From Candidatus Kaiserbacteria bacterium (GTDB lineage Bacteria; Patescibacteriota; Minisyncoccia; Phycocordibacterales; Phycocordibacteraceae): DNA of 64,000 bases. The translations under genes and the position numbers were made by a program. Of the stretch, positions 1,427 to 58,208 are shown piece after piece. Numbering within the stretch: position 1 is the first letter of the stretch; every line of letters begins with the position of its first letter. The stretch spans positions 177,878 to 241,877 of the forward strand of contig JAHFMN010000001.1 of NCBI GenBank assembly GCA_023264445.1. The letters are read 5' to 3'. The notes below the pieces were generated by a model that had not been told where the DNA came from, made no database searches, and saw only the letters and a program-made list of their open reading frames with translations.

Positions 1427-2076
1427 GTTCGGGAATCGGTTTCAGGCCACTCGATAAGCCGGCCCGCCTTGAGTTCCATCGAGTCGGCTCCGCGGACATG
1501 GCGCCAGTTCCCTTTCGGGACGAGGAAGTAGTGCTTCCGCTCCGCGAGTGCATCATCAACCTCCCATACGTCTTTTTCTGTCGTTATCCAATCCGTACCG
1601 AAGCGGCGCATGTCGAGCGGCTTGCTGTAGCACTCAAGCGTCTTCTCTCCTGTGGAGTTCATGAACCATTCGTGGAAATACGAGAGTGCAAGTTCGCGCG
1701 GCGTACGGTAGACCGGGTCGCGGAAGCGGATAGTCGCATGATTCGTCTTGCTGATGGCGCCGTAGCGGCCCCCGCGCTTGTAGAGCGCCACGACATGATC
1801 ATCATCGCCTTTCCCCATCCGCGCAGAGAGATTCATGATGACAGGCGGCTCGCCGGCTATCCAGAGCGCCGTTGCGGCAAGGAGTGCACCCTCAATACAG
1901 TGAGCCTTCCCTTCCCGCAAGACCCGGCGCGGCGATAGATGCGTATCACCCTTTTTCTCCCAGTTCATAGGAAGTGAGTCAAGGAAATCCTGTATCTTGA
2001 TGGGAGTAGTGAGACGCGCGAGCTTCCGATACTCCTCTCGGGTAAGTCCCGATTGTTCAAGCGTGAGACGCCTCAT
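1423..2076 (-). CDS. transglutaminase-like cysteine peptidase superfamily protein
   Basis: 217 aa. GKAHCIEGALLAATALWIAG (Cys motif), then a DDDHVVAL His motif and a later Asp, consistent with a transglutaminase-core Cys-His-Asp arrangement. Confidence 0.4.
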   Translation of the reverse strand: MRRLTLEQSGLTREEYRKLARLTTPIKIQDFLDSLPMNWEKKGDTHLSPRRVLREGKAHCIEGALLAATALWIAGEPPVIMNLSARMGKGDDDHVVALYKRGGRYGAISKTNHATIRFRDPVYRTPRELALSYFHEWFMNSTGEKTLECYSKPLDMRRFGTDWITTEKDVWEVDDALAERKHYFLVPKGNWRHVRGADSMELKAGRLIEWPETDSRT

Positions 2077-2770: not shown

Positions 2771-3310
2771 CTAATCAGTCGGTTTTGCTGCCATCCTGCT
2801 GGCAAAAAAATGGCTTACATACGCGCACAAAACACCTATTGCTGCTCCACCAAGAATATCCGATGGGTAGTGGACACCTGCGATGATGCGGCTCATCGTT
2901 ATAAGGCCGGTCGCTATGAGAAAGACGATTCCCCACCTTTTATTGTAGAAATAGAGCGCCATGGACAATGCGAAGAAGAACGTGGCATGCCCCGAAGGGA
3001 ACGACCATGCCGTGTCGGTAAATAGTTGGTGGACCGGGAGCGCATCGAAGGGTCGCGGGCGGTGGTAGAAGTAGCGGATGAGTTCGGTAATGCCGAGTCG
3101 TGCAATCACGCCCGATGCGAACACCACGAGGAAGATTTCGATCTTCTCGCGCCTGGAATAGGCGGAGAAGAACAGGAAGGCGATGAGAACTATGACGAGG
3201 ATATACGCCAGGTATGATGCGAAGAACACGATGATTCCATCAAGAACAGGTGATCGCCCCGCAAGACCATTTAGAAAAAAGAGAATTTGTGTGTCGACAG
3301 TCATAATCAT
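2771..3310 (-). CDS. PAP2-family phosphatase (undecaprenyl-diphosphatase/phosphatidic acid phosphatase type 2)
   Basis: 179 aa polytopic membrane protein. KxxxxxxRP (HRPRPF), PSGH, and SRxxxxxHxxxD (SRIIAGVHYPSD) motifs are present. Confidence 0.85.
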   Translation of the reverse strand: MIMTVDTQILFFLNGLAGRSPVLDGIIVFFASYLAYILVIVLIAFLFFSAYSRREKIEIFLVVFASGVIARLGITELIRYFYHRPRPFDALPVHQLFTDTAWSFPSGHATFFFALSMALYFYNKRWGIVFLIATGLITMSRIIAGVHYPSDILGGAAIGVLCAYVSHFFASRMAAKPTD

Positions 3311-3805
3311 TCAGACTACCGGCATGAACAAACCGATAGCGACTCCGAGGATGATTGCGCCGCCACCAAGGAGCGCCATCCGCGCACCACGCCAGAGCAT
3401 CGGCAATCGAGAGAAACGAGCGCTCGCCATCCCAACGATGAAAAGTCCCAGAACGGATGCCGATATCGATACTGTGAGCGCAGTGCCATCCGAGAAAAAG
3501 AAATACGGGATGATCGGGATGAAGGATGCGAGCACGCAGGAAACGAACATCATGACCGCCGCAATTATGGAAGGGCGGTCATTAACATCTTTCCCGCTCT
3601 CGTACTCTTCGGCCGATTCTTCGGAGAGGAAATCTCCCATCGCCATCGAGAACGCTTCTACGAATGCATACACGATGCCGGTCAGTATGATGGTTGCGCG
3701 TGGCACACCCGCAACACTGATACCGGCGAGGAATCCGACGGTGGAGACGAGACTGTCATTGATACCGAAAACGACGGTGCGGAGATAGAGCGAACTATTT
3801 TTCAT
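3311..3805 (-). CDS. VIT1/CCC1-family Fe/Mn transporter-like membrane protein
   Basis: 164 aa. GINDSLVSTVGFLAGISVA matches the VIT-family N-terminal motif. Multiple TM helices. Confidence 0.65.
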   Translation of the reverse strand: MKNSSLYLRTVVFGINDSLVSTVGFLAGISVAGVPRATIILTGIVYAFVEAFSMAMGDFLSEESAEEYESGKDVNDRPSIIAAVMMFVSCVLASFIPIIPYFFFSDGTALTVSISASVLGLFIVGMASARFSRLPMLWRGARMALLGGGAIILGVAIGLFMPVV

Positions 3806-3870
3806 AGCCCAATGGTAGCATGCAAAAAAAAGAAGCCGGCTGCCAAGAGGCAGCCGGTCGTCTGTAGTGC

Positions 3871-4917
3871 TTACGTATCAAGCACCGACAGTAAATCCGA
3901 CGGAGGCGATACCACCGAAAGTTCCTTTTTCTTGAGCTCGCCGAGATACAGCGAGAGGTACGGGCGGCAGTCATCCGGTCCAAACACCACCACCTGAATC
4001 TTCCCATCCTCCCTGTCCTTGAACTGGTCCAATGTCCCAGCGCTCTTATGTCTCCGGAGGAACCGGAACGCGCCGGCAATGCCTAAGCCAAAGCTAGGGC
4101 CCAGATGCGGCATGACAAACGGCCAGGTGAGAAAGCTAAGAAGGAAGGATTCATGCCGACTGCCGAACTGGAGGGCCTCTTCTTTGAAAAACAGACTCCA
4201 TGGCTGTCGGACGTCCTTCTTTACGCTCGCGAGAGTGCGCGCTCCGGGGATTTCTTCTCCCTCGGCGCACAATACCGGTATGACCGTGGGCTTGAGCGAA
4301 GCATCGGTACACGCATACGCTGCGAGACCCATACTCGTTCCCATGGTTCCTCCCGGAACGAAAAGCAGCGACATCCGGCCTGCCCGCGACCATAACTGCG
4401 GAGCAAGATGCTGCCGGTGTGCCTGCCAGTTCCACGCCCTATCGTACTGACAGGGGTTGTACCAGCCGTCCTGCGCACCAAGCCTGCGAGCATAGGCAAC
4501 CGTCGTTTCGTCGGCGTCGGAAAGCAAATGGACCTTGGTGCGGCGCCCGATCGTCCGTATCGCATCGATCTTGTCATGCGGCACATCGCTCGACATAACT
4601 GCAGTGAAGTCGAGGTCAAGCGCATTGCAGATCTTCGCCATAGCTTCGCCGGTGTTGCCGCTCGTTGCTTCGATGATGCGGGTGTCGCGATTGATATGCT
4701 CCAAGGCAATTCCCGTTCCGATTGCGGCACGAGCGATGATCCACTTGCTATGCTGCGCTTCGCCCGGAACGCCTGCTGCTCTGATGACGATGCCGTCGGG
4801 AGCAAAAGGGTTGAGTTCCGGCGGAAACTCGGGAGAAACCCGCACGAGACGTACGGTTGATGGGTCGGGAATCCTTTGAAGAAACCGTTCCATCAGTAAT
4901 TCCTGGTTTGTGTCCAT
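3871..4917 (-). CDS. PLP-dependent enzyme, cysteine synthase/tryptophan-synthase-beta (PALP) family, with C-terminal extension
   Basis: 348 aa. SGNTG PLP-loop and GTGGT-like glycine-rich loop (VPGGTMGTSMG). About 100 aa of extra C-terminus. Confidence 0.65.
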   Translation of the reverse strand: MDTNQELLMERFLQRIPDPSTVRLVRVSPEFPPELNPFAPDGIVIRAAGVPGEAQHSKWIIARAAIGTGIALEHINRDTRIIEATSGNTGEAMAKICNALDLDFTAVMSSDVPHDKIDAIRTIGRRTKVHLLSDADETTVAYARRLGAQDGWYNPCQYDRAWNWQAHRQHLAPQLWSRAGRMSLLFVPGGTMGTSMGLAAYACTDASLKPTVIPVLCAEGEEIPGARTLASVKKDVRQPWSLFFKEEALQFGSRHESFLLSFLTWPFVMPHLGPSFGLGIAGAFRFLRRHKSAGTLDQFKDREDGKIQVVVFGPDDCRPYLSLYLGELKKKELSVVSPPSDLLSVLDT

Positions 4918-5430: not shown

Positions 5431-7524
5431 ATGAGCTTTTCTTTTTTTGCAAATATCATTGCACTCCTTTTTTCCTTCTTCATCGTCGGCGCGATTCTGG
5501 GCGCCTTTTTTTACACGTCTCGGCGAGACAATTTCATCCTTAAGCGGGCGCGTGCAAATCCAATACTGAAACCGACTGAACGGGAATGGGAGAACCGGGC
5601 GGTCTTTAATCCAGCGGCGCTCGCCCTAGGCGGTCGAACGCACCTCCTGTATCGCGCAATCGGGCATGATGGCATCTCGCGTTTCGGATATGCATCGTCG
5701 AAAAACGGCATTACGTTTGATGAGCGGCTCGCAGACCCCAGCTATACAAGCGAATATCCTCACGCAGCGAAGGCACCCTCGCAGATGCGCTACGCACCGA
5801 GCCTGTATGCTTCCGGCGGGAGCTGGGGAGGGTGTGAGGATGGACGCATGGTCTTCATTGAAGGCCGGGTTTATCTCTCCTTCTATGCATTTGATGAGAG
5901 CGATATGATCCGGGTCGCTGTCGCCTCCATCGCTTCCGATGATTTTCTCGCACACCGTTTTGACCGCTGGAGCCCGCCCACCTTCCTTTCCCCACCGGGT
6001 CAGATACATAAAAACTGGGTTCTGTTTCCTGAAAAAATAAACGGGAAATTCGCCGTTCTTCATAGCATTGCACCAACGATTGAGATCGCATACCGGGATA
6101 ACCTTGAAGACGTCGGGGGAAAAGAACCGTTTATAGAAAGCTGGTCGGGGCCGCGTACAAACCTGCCACCCAGGGAGAGCGCATGGGATACCACCGTGCT
6201 CGGTGCCGGTCCTCCGCCCATACACACAGCTGCTGGCTGGCTTGTCTTCTATCATGCGCATGATTCGCTTGAACCAACACGCTACAAGCTAGGTGCATTG
6301 CTCCTTGACCTTGCCAACCCTTCCAACGTGCTTGCGCGCGCCGCCGGACCCGTGTTTGAACCAGACGCCCCTTATGAAAATGATTGGAAGCCTGGGATTG
6401 CTTACGCATGCGGTGCGACAGTCGTGAAGGGGATGCTCTATGTGTATTACGGAAGCGGAGAGATGACCGTCTCAGTTGCATCCGCTCCGCTTGATGCCTT
6501 TCTGCAGGCGCTTCTTCATGGAGAACACGCCTCACTGCAGAAAACTGCACACATCCCCGCTACTAACCAGTCGCGCACTGCCCCGCTGCAACGTGAGACA
6601 AAATCTTTGTGCGCCCGCTCGGTCCTGAATCCCATTCTGCGTCCGCAAGGCGAGAGCTTCGAGAATCTTGCGACCTTCAATGCCGCTGCTATCGATATCA
6701 ATGGCTCGGTTCATATTCTCTATCGAGCCATGAGCATCGACCATGTCTCGACAATCGGCTACGCTCGATCAAAGGACGGCATCCACATAGACGAACGTCT
6801 TTCGGAGCCGGTATATCGTCCGCGCGCAGACTTTGAACAGAAACATTCGCATGCGAATTCCGGCTGCGAAGATCCTCGCGTAGTTATGATTGACGACCGG
6901 ATACATATGACGTATGTCGCTGCCGGTGATGTCGGAAAGGTAAAGGGCGTTATTGCCTCGATCTCTCGCGAAGATTTCCTTGCGAAACGCTTTGACCGCT
7001 GGAGCATGCCTACACTCGTCACCATCGAAGGGATCGACGACAAGGATATCTGTCTCCTTCCCGAGAAAATAAACGGACGGTACGTGCTCTATCATCGAAT
7101 CGGGAACCAGATGTGCGCGGCGGTCATCGACGATCTTTCATTCAAAGAGCGCGTGGCCCGTTGTGTAGAAGTGCTCAAACCGCGCGATGGCGCGTGGGAT
7201 GACCTGAAAGTCGGCATCGCAGGACCACCAATCAAGATAAAAGATGACTGGCTCTTGATCTATCATGGCATCGGGAAAAATGGCGTATACGGGCTTGGCG
7301 TTGCCCGCCTCGACTCCTCCGGCTTGCAGGTAAAGGCTCGTCTTGATGCGCCCATTCTTGTTCCGGAGACAGTGTATGAGAAGCACGGCGAGCGCGATAA
7401 TGTCGTATTCTCGTGCGGACAGGTCGTCCGCGGCGATACGATCTTCATCTACTACGGCGCGGCCGATAAGGTGCTCGGCGTCGCAACCGTCTCGCTCTCG
7501 CATATTCTTGATTCTCTTTCATGA
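5431..7524 (+). CDS. membrane-anchored protein with two tandem GH130-family (DUF377 beta-propeller, mannoside phosphorylase/glycosidase-like) domains
   Basis: 697 aa. N-terminal TM helix, then two homologous halves: ILKPTEREWENRAVFNPAALALGGRTHLLYRAIGHDGISRFGYASSKNGITFDERL and ILRPQGESFENLATFNAAAIDINGSVHILYRAMSIDHVSTIGYARSKDGIHIDERL. Each is followed by DFL..RFDRWS and YYG blocks. Confidence 0.75.
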   Translation: MSFSFFANIIALLFSFFIVGAILGAFFYTSRRDNFILKRARANPILKPTEREWENRAVFNPAALALGGRTHLLYRAIGHDGISRFGYASSKNGITFDERLADPSYTSEYPHAAKAPSQMRYAPSLYASGGSWGGCEDGRMVFIEGRVYLSFYAFDESDMIRVAVASIASDDFLAHRFDRWSPPTFLSPPGQIHKNWVLFPEKINGKFAVLHSIAPTIEIAYRDNLEDVGGKEPFIESWSGPRTNLPPRESAWDTTVLGAGPPPIHTAAGWLVFYHAHDSLEPTRYKLGALLLDLANPSNVLARAAGPVFEPDAPYENDWKPGIAYACGATVVKGMLYVYYGSGEMTVSVASAPLDAFLQALLHGEHASLQKTAHIPATNQSRTAPLQRETKSLCARSVLNPILRPQGESFENLATFNAAAIDINGSVHILYRAMSIDHVSTIGYARSKDGIHIDERLSEPVYRPRADFEQKHSHANSGCEDPRVVMIDDRIHMTYVAAGDVGKVKGVIASISREDFLAKRFDRWSMPTLVTIEGIDDKDICLLPEKINGRYVLYHRIGNQMCAAVIDDLSFKERVARCVEVLKPRDGAWDDLKVGIAGPPIKIKDDWLLIYHGIGKNGVYGLGVARLDSSGLQVKARLDAPILVPETVYEKHGERDNVVFSCGQVVRGDTIFIYYGAADKVLGVATVSLSHILDSLS

Positions 7525-7535
7525 TGTGGAATATG

Positions 7536-7679
7536 CAATGGGGAAAATTGGAGACTCTCGGAGCCGGCGCAGCATGGCAATTGCGGCGCCGAGGGGAGGC
7601 TGCGCCGCAATTTGCGCTGGCGAGAGTGAGTGCGCTGCAGCGCTGGATGCAGCGACACGTGCTCCAATTTTCCCCATTG
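7536..7679. repeat. GC-rich nested-hairpin element closed by an 18-bp perfect inverted repeat
   Basis: caatggggaaaattggag (7536-7553) pairs with ctccaattttccccattg (7662-7679). Internal sub-stems: actctcg/cgagagt, gcaattgcggcgcc/ggcgccgcaatttgc, and the palindrome gcgctgcagcgc. It lies between the GH130 gene stop and the PMM-like gene start. Confidence 0.5.
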
Positions 7680-7692
7680 TGGGTGAATCGCT

Positions 7693-53991: not shown

Positions 53992-56970
53992 TTAGAGTCC
54001 AAGCTCGGCTTTTAATGCTTCGAGTTTCTGTATCGTAGAAGATCCTATATAGCCAGTGCCCTTGGTTCGACCATTCGGCACGAGTATCTCATCACGGTAC
54101 TTCTCTTGGAATTTTATGACGGCAAATCTTGTGCGAGGACCGAAGTACGTTATCTCATTTCCGGGAGAGCCGGGGCCCGAATCAGCGATTTGCGTCGCGG
54201 GATCACTATTGAGAATCTTCTGAAGGATGAGCACGTTATTACCTTCAGAACCCACTCTCATATCGGTGAAGATGCTTGGAGTAGTGGTGGTCTCATTTGC
54301 CCGATTGTTTGTTTCCGATGCTGATGGAGCGCGTGGAGTCTCTGGTGTCGGCGGTGTTGATGCGTCTGTGGATTTTGGTGGTTTGGTTGCCGTTTGGGTA
54401 GAAACAGGGACCTTGAGAGATACTTTTGCACTCTGGCCGCCACCCATGCACGAGAGAGTAAATACTTTTGTTGAAGTAATGTTGCCGAACTGATGCAGAC
54501 CTGAAGTAGGCAAGAAGATGCCGTTCCAATCCCCCGTTGCGGTACAGGAAGTCGCAGGAGATGTCGCATTCCACGAGAGGATAGTGGAACCGCCGGGAGA
54601 AACAGAGGAAGGGTTCGCAGTTAATTGTACTTCGATAGATGAACGCGCCCGTTCAGCGACAGCAACCGTTATGCTTTTCGTAAATTGATATCCATTTGCA
54701 CCGGTACAGGTGAGTGTATAGGTCTGATCGTCAGTTAAGTTACCCGTAGAGAAGGTGCCACTCCTCGTTTTGGTGCCGCTCCATGCCCCCGAGGCCGTAC
54801 AGGAAGTCGCACTTGCGACCGACCACAAGAGCGTGGATGCACCATTGTAGCGAATGGAGGATGGGGACGCAGAAAATGCTGGGGTGGGGAGAGTTTTTTG
54901 CAAGGAAATGGCACTTACAGAGGTTATCTCCGGGGATGCACAGCTTGTATCACTGGGCTTCTGTGCAGAACAGGAACCGTTGCATTGTATGGCACCCGTA
55001 CTAATCTGGCCGCAGGCGTTCGGGCTGGAGGTGCAGGCCGCACCGTAGCCGGCTGGAACATCCGGTGTTTCCGCATCACATACTCCCTCATCCATCGTAC
55101 CGGAATTGGTCTGCCCGCAGGCGTTCGGGGCGGAAGTACAAGATTGAGAGATATTTACTAACGTTACTATTGGACACTCCAAATCAGAGGGTTCAACTGC
55201 AGAACAGGAACCATTGCAACTGATAGTGCCGACATCGGTCATGCCGCAGGCGTTCGGGCTGGAGGTGCAGGCCGCACCGTAGCCGGCTGGAGTCGCCGGT
55301 ACGTCTGCATTACAAACACCATGTACTACCGTACCGGTACTGGTGGAGCCGCAGGCATTTGCAGCGGAGATACAGGATTGGGCGGCAGTAGGTGCAGCGG
55401 TAGCGGCAGTAGATGCAGTAGGAGTAGAGGCCGGACAAGAAGCGTTGGAAGGCCTTCTGGCCGAGCAGGAGCCGTTGCATTTTATCGTACCGGAATTGGT
55501 CTGCCCGCAGGCGTTCGGGCTAGAGGTGCAGGCCGTGCCATAGCTCGCAGGGGTCGCAGGTGTTCGCGCACTGCACAAACTGTTGCATCCGATGGTGCCG
55601 GTACTCCTTTGTCCGCAGGCGTTCGGGCTGGAGGTGCAGGCCGCACCGTAGCCGGCTGGATTCGCAGGAATTGAAGCGCTGCACGAGCCATTGATGACGG
55701 TCCCGGTGTTGGTCTGTCCGCACGCATTTGCGGCGGAGGTACAAGAAACAACTGCGAGAGGTGTCACCGGACAACTTGCATCTGATGGCTTTGCTGCCGT
55801 ACAAGAGCCATTACACCCAGTCGTGCCGGAATTGGTCTGCCCGCAGGCGTTCGGGGCGGAAGTACAACTGGAACCATAGGTAGGAGGATTGGCGGGAGTT
55901 GAGACATTGCACGAACCATTACAACCGATAGTGCCGCTGTTTCTCTGACCGCACGCATTTGCGGCGGAGGTACAGACCGTGTCGTAGCCGGCTGGATTCG
56001 CAGGAATTGAAGCGCTGCACGAGCCATTGATGACGGTCCCGGTGTTGGTCTGTCCGCAAGCATTTGCGGCGGAGGTGCAGGACTGAGGAGCGGTAAGTAT
56101 TGATTGAGTATCTGCTTGAACCGTTACGGTTGGTGCCTGCAAGAAAGGTACGCTTACTATTTTTTTAACCTGCACCAGCTGAAAATTAACGGTGTTATTG
56201 CACATAATCCAGAAGTTTATGAACCTCGTCTGGATAGGATTAAAAAAAGTTCCTAAGAGCTTCATCGAGACGGTGCCAGAAGTCGGACGTTGTGCAATAG
56301 CGATACTGGAACCAACATTCGAGTTGTACACGAGCTCATAATCGGCGTACGCGTTCAGTACGCAGTAGGCCGCATTGCTTGTAGACCAGCTTATGGTTGC
56401 CGTATCTCCGACGGAGATTCCTGACGATGGAGAAACAGTAAAGCTATCTATGGTCGGCGGATTCGCTCCTATGGTCGTCGTCGTGGGCGGTGGAGAAGAT
56501 GGAGGATTAGCAACCGTAAATGTTCTCGGTGTTCCTTGATAGATTGCACCTTGGCTGATTCCGGCAAAGAAAATCTTGTGATCGCCAGGCGCCAATACTC
56601 CTAAGTTTGCTGTAAAGGCGTTTGCGGGCGCAATTTGGTGTCGGTACGCACTACATGCTTCAAAATTGCTTTCCTGCAGGGTGGTCGCTAACGGGCAGTC
56701 GAGCACATACCACATCACGAGGAAGTTGTATGCGGGATTGATATTTCCAGAGATGGTGACCGGGGATCCGGTAGGATATGGGTTGAGTAGCGAATAGGAG
56801 AGTACGCCGCTCACCGTTGTCGCCCCACCTATATTGACTCCTCCCGTCACGGCGCCTCCTATTTGCGCTTTGGCGGTAATTGGCAAGAAACTGAAGAAAA
56901 GAATCGGGAGGATAACAAGAAAAGGCTGTGCTGACCTCCCAAACTTGCTTGCAAAAAATTTCCTACTCAT
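53992..56970 (-). CDS. large secreted Cys-rich tandem-repeat surface protein with Ig-like domains and C-terminal peptidoglycan-binding (PG_binding_1-like) domain
   Basis: 992 aa. Signal peptide, then about 10 copies of CTS[AS][AP]NACGQxxxGT...C...P(A/S)xY modules. Ig-like segments follow (…SC.A.G.W.G…T..Y.L.C.G). The C-terminus DMRVGSEGNNVLILQKILN...ITYFGPRTRFAVIKFQEKY matches the PG-binding fold. Confidence 0.8.
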   Translation of the reverse strand: MSRKFFASKFGRSAQPFLVILPILFFSFLPITAKAQIGGAVTGGVNIGGATTVSGVLSYSLLNPYPTGSPVTISGNINPAYNFLVMWYVLDCPLATTLQESNFEACSAYRHQIAPANAFTANLGVLAPGDHKIFFAGISQGAIYQGTPRTFTVANPPSSPPPTTTTIGANPPTIDSFTVSPSSGISVGDTATISWSTSNAAYCVLNAYADYELVYNSNVGSSIAIAQRPTSGTVSMKLLGTFFNPIQTRFINFWIMCNNTVNFQLVQVKKIVSVPFLQAPTVTVQADTQSILTAPQSCTSAANACGQTNTGTVINGSCSASIPANPAGYDTVCTSAANACGQRNSGTIGCNGSCNVSTPANPPTYGSSCTSAPNACGQTNSGTTGCNGSCTAAKPSDASCPVTPLAVVSCTSAANACGQTNTGTVINGSCSASIPANPAGYGAACTSSPNACGQRSTGTIGCNSLCSARTPATPASYGTACTSSPNACGQTNSGTIKCNGSCSARRPSNASCPASTPTASTAATAAPTAAQSCISAANACGSTSTGTVVHGVCNADVPATPAGYGAACTSSPNACGMTDVGTISCNGSCSAVEPSDLECPIVTLVNISQSCTSAPNACGQTNSGTMDEGVCDAETPDVPAGYGAACTSSPNACGQISTGAIQCNGSCSAQKPSDTSCASPEITSVSAISLQKTLPTPAFSASPSSIRYNGASTLLWSVASATSCTASGAWSGTKTRSGTFSTGNLTDDQTYTLTCTGANGYQFTKSITVAVAERARSSIEVQLTANPSSVSPGGSTILSWNATSPATSCTATGDWNGIFLPTSGLHQFGNITSTKVFTLSCMGGGQSAKVSLKVPVSTQTATKPPKSTDASTPPTPETPRAPSASETNNRANETTTTPSIFTDMRVGSEGNNVLILQKILNSDPATQIADSGPGSPGNEITYFGPRTRFAVIKFQEKYRDEILVPNGRTKGTGYIGSSTIQKLEALKAELGL
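54930..56079 (-). repeat. intragenic tandem DNA repeats (about 105-120 bp units, higher-order ~324 bp) encoding the Cys-rich modules
   Basis: Recurrent strings such as ggccgcaccgtagccggctgga and ctgcccgcaggcgttcgggc on the plus strand. The protein repeat spans about aa 298-680. Confidence 0.7.
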
Positions 56971-57378: not shown

Positions 57379-57621
57379 CTATGCGGTAATGCCGAGGGAG
57401 GACACGAGCCTCTCCTTATCAAAACCGATGATCATGTCGTTTCCGACAAAAATGACCGGTACGCCCATCTGGCCGGATTTCTGTATCATTTCCTGGCGCT
57501 TTTCCAGATCTTGCGCAACATTATAATCAGTATAGGCAATTCCCTTTTCCTTTAGGAAATCCTTGGTCATCTGGCAGAAGTGACAAGTCGGTGTGCTGTA
57601 AATAGTAATGGTTTTGTCCAT
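57379..57621 (-). CDS. glutaredoxin-like protein (NrdH/Grx family)
   Basis: 80 aa from MDKTITIYSTPTCHFCQ (CxxC) and GVPVIFVGNDMIIGFD. Confidence 0.7.
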   Translation of the reverse strand: MDKTITIYSTPTCHFCQMTKDFLKEKGIAYTDYNVAQDLEKRQEMIQKSGQMGVPVIFVGNDMIIGFDKERLVSSLGITA

Positions 57622-57742
57622 GTTCGTAGTGTTATGCGGGAAGTATACCACCTACAGTTATCCACAGAAATAGCAGTGCGGGTACCGGGAATCGGACTCG
57701 GGTCTCAACCCTTGCCCCGTTAGATATTCATCTATTTATCTG

Positions 57743-57813
57743 TGCGGAATGGGAGAATCGAACTCCCGCCCGTTGCTTGGGAAGCAACTGTTCTACCACT
57801 AAACCAATTCCGC
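57743..57813 (-). tRNA. tRNA-Gly (anticodon CCC)
   Basis: Minus strand GCGGAATTGGTTTAGTGGTAGAACA-GTTGC-TTCCCAA-GCAAC-GGGC-GGGAG-TTCGATT-CTCCC-ATTCCGC-A. Confidence 0.8.
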
Positions 57814-57869
57814 ATCTATCTAACGGGGTTGGAAGTCGGTCGACTTCTACCACTAAACCATACCCGCAA

Positions 57870-58208
57870 TTAGAACCAGTCAAATATCTTCTGCCACCAC
57901 GGGGGTGTCGTTGTCGGCGCTTTTTGCTCAGGCGGCACTACCACGATAACCTCTTCTCCGGGCCTCGCAACCCCAAAGGCCGTCCGGATGGCTGCATCCT
58001 TCCCGCGCTCGGTTTGCAGTGATGCGACGTTCGCTTGAAGCATTGCTTTGCGCTCCTCAAGCGTTTCGTATTGCCACTTTGCGTCGTTTGCCTGCGTGAC
58101 CGCTATCTGTGCCTTTCCGACGAGCCCCCAGATGAGCGAGAGCAGCCAGAAAGCGACGAGCAGCAGGATGCCGATGAGAACCCCTTGTCGCCACTGTTTT
58201 GCGCGCAT
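57870..58208 (-). CDS. septum-formation initiator-like (FtsB/DivIC/FtsL-type) bitopic protein
   Basis: 112 aa. One TM helix followed by a coiled coil (LEERKAMLQANVASLQTERGK). Confidence 0.45.
   Translation of the reverse strand: MRAKQWRQGVLIGILLLVAFWLLSLIWGLVGKAQIAVTQANDAKWQYETLEERKAMLQANVASLQTERGKDAAIRTAFGVARPGEEVIVVVPPEQKAPTTTPPWWQKIFDWF

Follow-up and report, generated by a model that had tools for sequence, protein, structure and literature searches.

A tRNA-Gly(CCC) gene nested within the remnants of another in Candidatus Kaiserbacteria: a probable scar of tRNA gene replacement

In a 64,000-nucleotide stretch of a Candidatus Kaiserbacteria contig (hereafter, the window), a complete tRNA-Gly(CCC) gene lies between the two halves of a second tRNA-Gly gene (57867–57677, minus strand). 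The outer gene, which we call allele A, was interrupted between positions 35 and 36 by DNA carrying a different allele, B, and has decayed since; such interruptions recur in the clade. We favor, with a probability of about 0.62, the interpretation that the locus is the scar of a tRNA gene replacement, itself free of a nuclease gene, at a hotspot where replacement is probably driven by a homing endonuclease, the link to the nuclease being drawn from sequence comparison with relatives. The locus is one instance of a recurrent, apparently undescribed tRNA gene turnover in Patescibacteria, and among known categories it fits best, as a new variant, under homing-endonuclease or tRNA-targeting mobile DNA. 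Our literature searches turned up no account of nested tRNA genes in the candidate phyla radiation (CPR), nor of a GIY-YIG cassette located there at tRNA-Gly.

Results

Structure of the nested locus

Read along the minus strand from 57867 to 57677, the locus consists of GCGGGTATGGTTTAGTGGTAGAAGTCGACC, GAC-TTCC-AA, CCCCGTTAGATA, GAT, a 71-nt tRNA-Gly(CCC), CAGATAAATAGATGAA, TATCTAACGGGG, CAA-G, and GGTTGAGACCCGAGTCCGATTCCCGGTACCCGCA. The inner tRNA (allele B; 57743–57813, on the minus strand like every feature of the unit) scored 70.4 bits against the Rfam tRNA model and was placed by ARAGORN at 57742–57813; it was the sole call made by ARAGORN and Rfam in the region. It is enclosed by a perfect 12-bp inverted repeat, with the left arm CCCCGTTAGATA at 57817–57828 and the right arm TATCTAACGGGG at 57715–57726; when the surrounding 1 kb was shuffled 300 times, an inverted repeat of 12 bp arose only once. 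Between the tRNA and the right arm is a 16-nt trailer, CAGATAAATAGATGAA (57727–57742), which holds TAAATAGATG, a direct repeat of TAGATAGATG in the leader. Because excising the tRNA together with one copy of the direct repeat ATAGAT leaves a perfect 12-bp hairpin with a 6-nt loop, there is a hint, though only a hint, that the tRNA entered a hairpin loop.

The 5′ part of the outer gene, GCGGGTATGGTTTAGTGGTAGAAGTCGACC (57838–57867), runs from tRNA position 1 through the 5′ strand of the anticodon stem and comprises the acceptor strand GCGGGTA, the D-arm, and the anticodon-stem strand CGACC. It is followed by a damaged half of the anticodon loop (57829–57837) made up of a 3-nt insertion (GAC), TTCC (positions 32–35), and AA. 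The 3′ part (57677–57714) begins with CAA (positions 36–38) and an extra G and continues as GGTTGAGACCCGAGTCCGATTCCCGGTACCCGCA, which contains the 3′ strand of the anticodon stem (GGTTG), the variable region, the T-arm, and the acceptor strand TACCCGC followed by an A. A tRNA-Gly(CCC) profile run with nhmmer matched 57867–57838 (profile positions 1–30) and 57710–57677 (profile positions 38–71), and the junctions TTCC/AA-CCCCG and CGGGG/CAA place the insert at anticodon position 35/36. The insert measures 114–116 nt and contains no open reading frame (ORF).

An initial annotation, made from the letters of the window alone, had seen an inner tRNA-Gly(CCC) inside a 12-bp perfect inverted repeat and between two Gly-tRNA remnants, and all of these elements lie on the minus strand where it had placed them. 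The acceptor strands that it had described as complementary, GCGGGTA and TACCCGC, pair at 7 of 7 positions, and its self-complementary hairpin is GAAGTC-GACC-GACTTC at 57832–57847, an element of the minimum free energy (MFE) fold built from outer D-stem and anticodon-stem sequence plus the inserted GAC. Its measurements needed correction: the identical D-arm run shared by the two tRNAs exists but spans 16 nt instead of 17; the arms are a perfect 12 bp, but the 13-nt strings given for them were one base too long and the 3′ string was mistranscribed, the real one being ATATCTAACGGGG; the 5′ remnant does not end after 24 nt but extends through CGACC into the anticodon loop; and the insert had been put at ~130 nt.

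We fetched ~180 loci from related genomes, labelled L001 and so on; the relatives nearest to the window are metagenome-assembled genomes assigned to Candidatus Kaiserbacteria and other Patescibacteria. The exact 220-nt unit is present in L161, an independent ENA assembly, and the printed sequence of L162, a Logan assembly, is identical from the ftsB end to its contig end just past the inner tRNA. Since it is reproduced in independent assemblies, the nested unit is not an assembly artefact.

Two distinct tRNA alleles

In L081 (85% LepA identity) and L004, the same position after ftsB holds an uninterrupted single tRNA-Gly(CCC) of which the outer halves are the orthologue. This gene, GCGGGTATGGTTTAGTGGTAGAATGCGACCTTCCCAAGGTTGAGACCCGGGTTCGATTCCCGGTACCCGCA, has the intact anticodon loop TTCCCAA. 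Its 5′ part (GCGGGTATGGTTTAGTGGTAGAATGCGACC) differs from that of the outer gene solely by a change from TG to GT at linear positions 24–25, which creates a G10–G25 mismatch in the D-stem of the outer tRNA. In the anticodon region, the outer gene has gained three nucleotides after CGACC, lost one anticodon C, and gained a G before GGTTG; in its 3′ part, a G-to-A change produces an A–C mismatch in the T-stem, and the T-loop has gone from TTCGATT to TCCGATT. By sequence comparison, the GAAGTC-GACC-GACTTC hairpin is strengthened by all three changes relative to allele A. One of the readings offered in the initial annotation, a disrupted pseudo-tRNA, is borne out by this orthology to an intact gene and by the uncompensated defects. 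The 3′ flank of the outer tRNA, CTGCTATTTCTGTGGATAAC, is common to the window and L185. We also considered whether the 5′ part might supply, with CUUCCAA, the anticodon loop of a tRNA-Gly(UCC); this was ruled out, as no complementary 3′ stem strand is present. Separately, the T-loop TCCGATT, with C at the near-universal U55, was seen in the intact and apparently sole tRNA-Gly(CCC) of L109, L132, L155, L163, and L182.

The inner tRNA is 100% identical to the only tRNA-Gly(CCC) of L005, L084, and L181, as well as to an endonuclease-linked tRNA in L167 (see below), and is presumably a functional gene. The D-arm is the only part whose stem is alike in alleles A and B; all other stems differ, in a compensatory manner. 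This bears on an alternative in which one resident gene was duplicated or rearranged locally by slippage or template switching with no foreign DNA involved, or in which the structure is a chimera of assembly. The 16-nt identical D-arm could mediate slippage, and there are short direct and inverted repeats around the inner tRNA. However, each of the two tRNAs matches a distinct allele that stands alone in other genomes, compensatory differences in all stems but the D-arm exclude a local duplication, and the structure is seen again in independent assemblies. We regard this alternative as highly improbable, the allele comparison having already largely refuted it.

Nested tRNA genes in related genomes

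ORF-free units with an inner tRNA-Gly(CCC) between 5′ and 3′ remnants were also found in L002, L006, L018, and L048; L085 probably carries another, its contig ending too early to tell. The architecture extends to a second tRNA species: in L033 (~6810–7072; arms CCCCATCATAATGC/GCATTATGAGGGG) and L030 (~3200–3461; arms CCTCGTAAAATGC/GCATTTACGGGG), a tRNA-Arg(CCT) lies within a dead tRNA-Arg(CCT) as in the window, and the Arg arms, which start with CCCC and finish with GGGG, covary between the two loci. The nested units combine varied inner and outer alleles. One element is common to L002 and L006 and sits inside two different outer alleles, and the 5′ flank of the inner tRNA in L018 is the native upstream flank of the outer tRNA in L048, which suggests that a resident tRNA in one lineage can invade another. 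In all seven units, leader and trailer form a helix of −16 to −32 kcal/mol, as compared with a median of −11.3 for 117 ordinary tRNA genes. Among the 160 loci retrieved through LepA synteny, to which these counts are confined, tRNA-Gly fragments lay beside the gene in 10 of 43 loci, whereas the figures were 3–4 of 47 for tRNA-Arg and 0 of 33 for tRNA-Phe.

The order lepA, ftsB, tRNA-Gly(CCC), grx, tRNA-Arg(CCT), tRNA-Phe is kept widely among relatives, and the window itself encodes LepA, a MurJ-like protein, an FtsB/DivIC-like protein, and a glutaredoxin. The ftsB/divIC-like gene (57870–58208, minus strand), which marks the conserved slot by synteny, adjoins the outer tRNA on its 5′ side, with its stop codon 2 nt 5′ of the outer tRNA start; the glutaredoxin gene (57379–57621, minus strand; Pfam PF00462 on the identical locus L161) forms the 3′ border. 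A scan found no sigma-70-like promoter in the slot and no terminator on the relevant strand, and the slot is probably transcribed by read-through from lepA-ftsB. Across related genomes, alleles with and without the element share this one conserved site: L081, L004, L003, L005, and L084 have an uninterrupted single tRNA-Gly in the slot, L001, L163, L167, L177, L179, and L185 have a nuclease cassette (see below), and the window, L002, L006, and, as far as its contig extends, L085 have ORF-free nested units. At least four tRNA-Gly(CCC) alleles occur after ftsB among relatives with at least 76% LepA identity, and the contents of the slot also vary by nested dead copies, an inverted gene, and a nuclease cassette. 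The inverted gene is that of L180, where the entire tRNA-Gly(CCC) is turned around inside the slot (1554–1624, minus strand). Several genomes additionally carry an antisense copy of a tRNA 3′ end (..GCCGGGAATCGAAAG.. / TGCGGGATA..CGGGAATCGAA) just 3′ of tRNA-Gly(CCC), at ~3385–3460 in L081, at ~1995–2080 in L185, and 15–40 nt downstream of tRNA-Gly in L088, L022, L023, and L029.

The initial annotation had also raised the possibility of a tRNA-targeting mini-element, and one side of this idea stands: hairpin-closed, tRNA-carrying insertions do recur in cognate tRNA genes of two tRNA species. Mobility of the window element is unsupported, since it is present in one copy in the window and the arms differ between loci. 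A separate reading is that of a nonautonomous transposon resembling a miniature inverted-repeat transposable element (MITE), i.e., a unit bounded by inverted repeats with a passenger tRNA, moved in trans by an unseen transposase with a preference for the cognate tRNA gene and with no homing endonuclease. The perfect 12-bp terminal repeats are what one would expect of such a unit, as are its recurrence in Gly and Arg genes and the sharing of one element by L002 and L006 across two outer alleles. A duplication of 2–3 bp (AA or CAA) may also be seen on both sides of the insert, but one anticodon C is missing there and the other nested units show no target duplication. Further copies of the 12-bp arms were absent from the 64-kb window (allowing up to 2 mismatches) and gave 0 matches in viral contigs, the arms are wholly different between units so that no single transposase site is evident, one arm takes in the first 2–4 nt of the tRNA itself in L018, L033, and L030, and no unit has a transposase gene near it. 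We thus consider a MITE-like element unlikely. Among the ~180 fetched loci, no homologue of the flanks of the window insert was found; the only similarities, short and suggestive, are to the trailers of L167 and L181, with the first 9 nt of the right arm (TATCTAACG) matching the 3′ flank of the same tRNA allele in L167 (TATCTAAAG) at 8 of 9 positions.

Three other features of these loci were recorded. A conserved insertion of ~95–130 nt (TGAGRAATGGG..GACCCATTYCGCAAGACC....TGTAAG), which matches no Rfam family, is present in the outer tRNA-Arg of L033 (~6965–7045) and L030 (~3350–3435) and in a pseudo tRNA-Gly of L097 (6236–6340); it could represent a small intron, a ribozyme, or a MITE not described before. 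A rough search for T-arms with a matching acceptor strand returned tRNA-like genes spanning 111–139 nt in L022 (~7550–7685), L030 (~3780–3940), and L052 (~1110–1250), with the acceptors GCCGAGA/TCTCGGC and GGCTGGT/ACCAGCC, and these may be intron-containing or otherwise interrupted tRNAs. In L048, a hairpin (TGAAAAGC..GCTTTTCA plus TCCCTCGC) follows the nested tRNA (3895–3945); because a second copy, 91% identical over 33 nt, lies upstream of lepA (6666–6698), we take it to be a dispersed small element or terminator, and its TCCCTC not to be a mutated anticodon loop.

Folding and tests for splicing

The outer halves could in principle still yield a working tRNA, either because the insert is spliced out or because RNase P and RNase Z free the inner tRNA and leave a two-piece outer one. 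The outer acceptor strands pair at all seven positions, the T-arm is nearly intact, and the MFE fold of the region (−73.8 kcal/mol) is better than that of shuffled sequences (z = −3.2). In this fold, the outer acceptor stem and the small hairpin both form, the inner cloverleaf caps the 12-bp helix, and there is a further short hairpin, GGGU/ACCC. Split tRNAs have complementary intervening sequences, which the 12-bp helix resembles. However, the two unpaired CAA triplets both flank one end of the continuous 12-bp helix, where they are part of a multibranch junction, and hence do not form a bulge-helix-bulge (BHB), in which two 3-nt bulges stand on opposite strands 4 bp apart. Any excision would leave a loop of at least 9 nt or put a CCA anticodon on a Gly body, and a repaired product would merely duplicate the anticodon of the inner tRNA. 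In addition, the outer gene has uncompensated mismatches, the outer tRNA of the nested loci L002, L006, L018, and L048 lacks positions 26–31, relatives have the same tRNA uninterrupted, and the organism is bacterial by its LepA, MurJ, and FtsB.

ARAGORN in intron mode at default stringency found no outer tRNA; at an 80% threshold it returned a "Trp(cca)" with a 118-nt intron and a 9-nt loop. When joined, the outer halves were called Val(aac) or Trp(cca) with oversized loops, and Gly(ccc) was obtained only with an artificially repaired TTCCCAA loop. The suggestion in the initial annotation of an unusual processing substrate or split tRNA is unsupported, there being no BHB, no intron core, and no way to restore a 7-nt loop. 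No group I core was found, and Rfam cmscan of 57600–57950 with E up to 10 returned the inner tRNA only; over the region and 16 related loci, gathering and permissive searches gave only tRNAs and one RNase P RNA, with no family for the hairpins or the insert. Two specific candidates were set aside: an archaeal-type BHB intron or split tRNA, by the fold and ARAGORN intron mode, and a group I intron, for which the 35/36 anticodon-loop site is present and the catalytic core is not. A functional interrupted tRNA is, in our judgment, highly improbable.

A GIY-YIG nuclease cassette in related genomes

Related genomes carry ORFs of ~90 aa that match Pfam GIY-YIG (PF01541, E ∼1e-13). Across 12 sequences, none of the catalytic residues varies (Tyr in GIY, Tyr in YIG, an Arg, and a Glu), and the genes are predicted to be catalytically intact. 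Among database proteins, 672 homologues were listed at E up to 1e-5, many of them on short contigs; the few with a named source came from Patescibacteria or unclassified bacteria, and the nearest solved structure was a weak match, UPF0213 protein BH0048 (E = 0.33). In 12 of the 12 distinct contexts examined, the ORF is directly 5′ of a tRNA-Gly(CCC). Its end overlaps the tRNA start by 10–21 nt in the nine contexts whose coordinates were compared, and in L001, L130, and L167 its stop codon is the TAG of the D-loop GTTTAG. Seven contexts (L001, L163, L167, L173, L177, L179, and L185) are directly after ftsB/divIC, which is the position of the window unit, and grx comes next in five. A distant GIY-YIG with the same layout was found at tRNA-Phe in L015.

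In most contexts, the ORF comes after a dead tRNA piece and tandem hairpins. L001 (84% LepA identity, among the closest relatives found), L130, L155, and L118 have, in order, a dead 5′ tRNA-Gly fragment, tandem hairpins (two of ~30 nt each, consensus YCCGCC...GGCGGR), the ORF, and the tRNA. L167 has a 5′ remnant of allele A, tandem hairpins, GIY-YIG, and a tRNA identical to allele B of the window; L185 has hairpins, GIY-YIG, an intact allele A, a ∼155-nt insert, a 3′ remnant of A from the T-loop onward, and then the downstream flank of the window (CTGCTATTTCTGTGGATAAC). In L173, a nested doll includes the nuclease gene, with a 5′ remnant (positions 1–9), GIY-YIG, a full tRNA, and two 3′ remnants; in one of these, CTTCC and CAAG are separated exactly by a pair of hairpins. 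L130, L155, L168, and L173 thus each show a break or an inserted hairpin at CTTCC/CAA (35/36, the insertion point of the window), and other breakpoints recur at 17/18, 25/26, and 55/56; as a sign of site-specific cleavage, these recurrent breakpoints are no more than suggestive.

The tandem hairpins deserve description in their own right. They are GC-rich ~30-nt pairs (YCCGCC..GGCGGR or CCCCGAC..GTCGGGG) within dead tRNA remnants, inserted at positions 4/5, 10/11, 13/14, 17/18, 25/26, 35/36, and 55/56; most are 8–24 nt 5′ of the GIY-YIG start codon, and some occur alone. A motif scan found them almost confined to GIY-YIG/tRNA loci, with a few isolated single hairpins elsewhere, and Rfam has no family for them. 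They are located at 6786–6849 in L001, 5893–5962 in L130, 3786–3843 in L155, 1422–1487 in L163, 1400–1485 in L168, 1850–1911 and 1939–1999 in L173, 5413–5497 in L118, ~5505–5545 in L104, and ~9012–9062 in L015.

A second type of nuclease occurs in the neighborhood. The LepA of L167 (1–1029) is annotated as 765 aa and has a PDDEXK_3 nuclease domain inside its GTPase domain, and a separate PDDEXK_3 gene is near the cassette in L168 (2461–2856); both may be further selfish insertions. Elsewhere in the window (53992–56970, minus strand), a 992-aa ORF with many Cys-rich tandem repeats of ~45 aa (..CTSAANACGQTNTGT..CNGSCSA..) probably encodes a surface or secreted repeat protein.

Discussion

The sequence of events that we favor begins with the resident allele A after ftsB, which would have been broken in mid-anticodon, at 35/36, by a small GIY-YIG endonuclease of the family that shares the slot in relatives. 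A piece of 114–116 bp carrying the complete allele B of another lineage, enclosed by the 12-bp inverted repeat, would have been joined into the break. Where donor and recipient have flanks in common, repair from a cassette donor would be expected to copy the nuclease gene together with the tRNA and to leave remnants on one side only; where they match poorly, as A and B do, a short donor fragment may be end-joined instead, giving ORF-free nested units. The window would then be a nuclease-free product, or derivative, of such cutting and replacement. The halves of allele A would now be a decaying pseudogene that acts only as transcribed leader and trailer, and allele B would be the working gene, presumably freed from a read-through transcript through the action of RNase P and processing at the 3′ end; in L018, an RNase P RNA of the bacterial class A was found (95.2 bits, just under the Rfam gathering score of 100). 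The 12-bp helix may serve as insulation by folding the inner tRNA away from the homologous outer halves.

Several observations weigh against this account. No GIY-YIG of this family is present in the 64-kb window in any of six reading frames, nor are canonical tandem hairpins, and the inverted-repeat arms of the window are unrelated in sequence both to the tandem hairpins and to the arms of other nested units. Replacement by cutting gives no account of why an inverted repeat surrounds every inner tRNA. The T-loop TCCGATT of the outer gene is also found in intact genes (L109, L132, and L163) and hence does not on its own indicate decay, and no resistance polymorphism between nuclease-linked and unlinked tRNAs was evident by inspection. 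Finally, the DNA identity of the GIY-YIG genes tracks LepA identity, and thus the cassette looks long-resident and not recently transferred; it may be of old standing and in part domesticated. For the same reason, the idea that the nuclease gene was transferred horizontally in recent times is unsupported, and viral contigs yielded no relatives that would point to a phage origin of the family.

Known systems resemble parts of the locus. In phage T4, the GIY-YIG homing endonuclease SegB promotes the inheritance of a region of tRNA genes (PMC2330249). As with free-standing nucleases of this type, relatives of the window have a small nuclease gene among or beside tRNA genes, neighboring tRNA DNA is inherited with the nuclease gene, and nuclease-free alleles are found. 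Unlike SegB, the predicted nuclease family described here is on Patescibacteria chromosomes with no relatives found on viral contigs, and its ORF overlaps the tRNA by 10–21 nt; moreover, dead halves of the old tRNA gene persist, along with tandem hairpins, and the window has no nuclease gene. In the same phylum, CPR rRNA genes hold GIY-YIG-encoding insertions that are not introns (PMC11270868, which is silent on tRNA). These share with the loci studied here a GIY-YIG gene in an insertion within a structured-RNA gene, membership of neither intron group (I or II), and a tendency to fall at the tops or bases of stem-loops, but here a tRNA gene is hit. Because pieces of a tRNA severed in the anticodon are not functional, the insertion here brings a complete replacement gene. 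Group I introns have been described at 35/36 of tRNA-Asn, -Asp, and -Thr in Patescibacteria, with no mention of Gly (PMC13011429); phylum and unusual insertion point are the same, whereas the 114–116-nt insert has no group I core and holds a tRNA, and its exons cannot be rejoined into a valid tRNA. Archaeal split and BHB tRNAs, as in Nanoarchaeum, likewise have tRNA halves apart and a ~12-bp helix next to the junction; the window differs in its lack of BHB geometry, its bacterial host, its defective outer tRNA, and the whole redundant tRNA in its intervening sequence.

The anticodon loop is a frequent target of tyrosine integrases, whose insertion leaves displaced fragments of the tRNA, and the locus might accordingly be viewed as the remnant of an integrase island or prophage that inserted into the anticodon loop of tRNA-Gly and was then almost entirely deleted, leaving its own tRNA copy between the halves. 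Integrative elements that target tRNA genes do insert in a tRNA gene, supply sequence that keeps its function, and displace a fragment, and a tRNA followed by a 3′ fragment is seen at several loci (L104, L081, and L185). On the other hand, such integration yields one hybrid tRNA and one partial direct repeat, supplying the 3′ part of a tRNA, and not a complete foreign tRNA with both halves of the old one remaining. The insert is only 114–116 bp, its repeat is inverted and not direct, and no integrase was present among the listed ORFs of the slot or the genes called around it in annotated relatives. We find an island remnant very unlikely, a little less so than a functional interrupted tRNA.

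Replacement following cleavage, if it occurred here, may be the work of a wider group of elements. We propose, tentatively and at somewhat under even odds, that Patescibacteria contain undescribed elements homing to tRNA genes, in which a GIY-YIG gene joined to the 5′ end of a replacement tRNA would be combined with tandem hairpins and with hairpin-closed derivatives that lack the nuclease, such as the unit in the window. They would kill the resident tRNA-Gly(CCC) gene, and also tRNA-Arg(CCT) and tRNA-Phe genes, by cutting within it, and would at once supply a new allele. If such a family exists, tRNA genes in these bacteria would undergo serial replacement in the manner of Russian dolls, by what would be a natural "cleave and rescue" drive acting on a tRNA.

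The tRNA genes are normally among the most stable in a genome, and the slot after ftsB contrasts with this. Its turnover accounts for tRNA pseudo-fragments in CPR metagenome assemblies and may account for contig breaks, and annotators should be aware that "split" tRNAs in bacteria may be scars. The relatives of the window are also a source of small, possibly site-specific GIY-YIG nucleases. Should the nuclease link hold, these loci would exemplify a form of homing in which damage to a tRNA is offset not by splicing but by the element's own replacement gene, a third solution beside introns and inteins on the one hand and the partial tRNA copies carried by integrase elements on the other.

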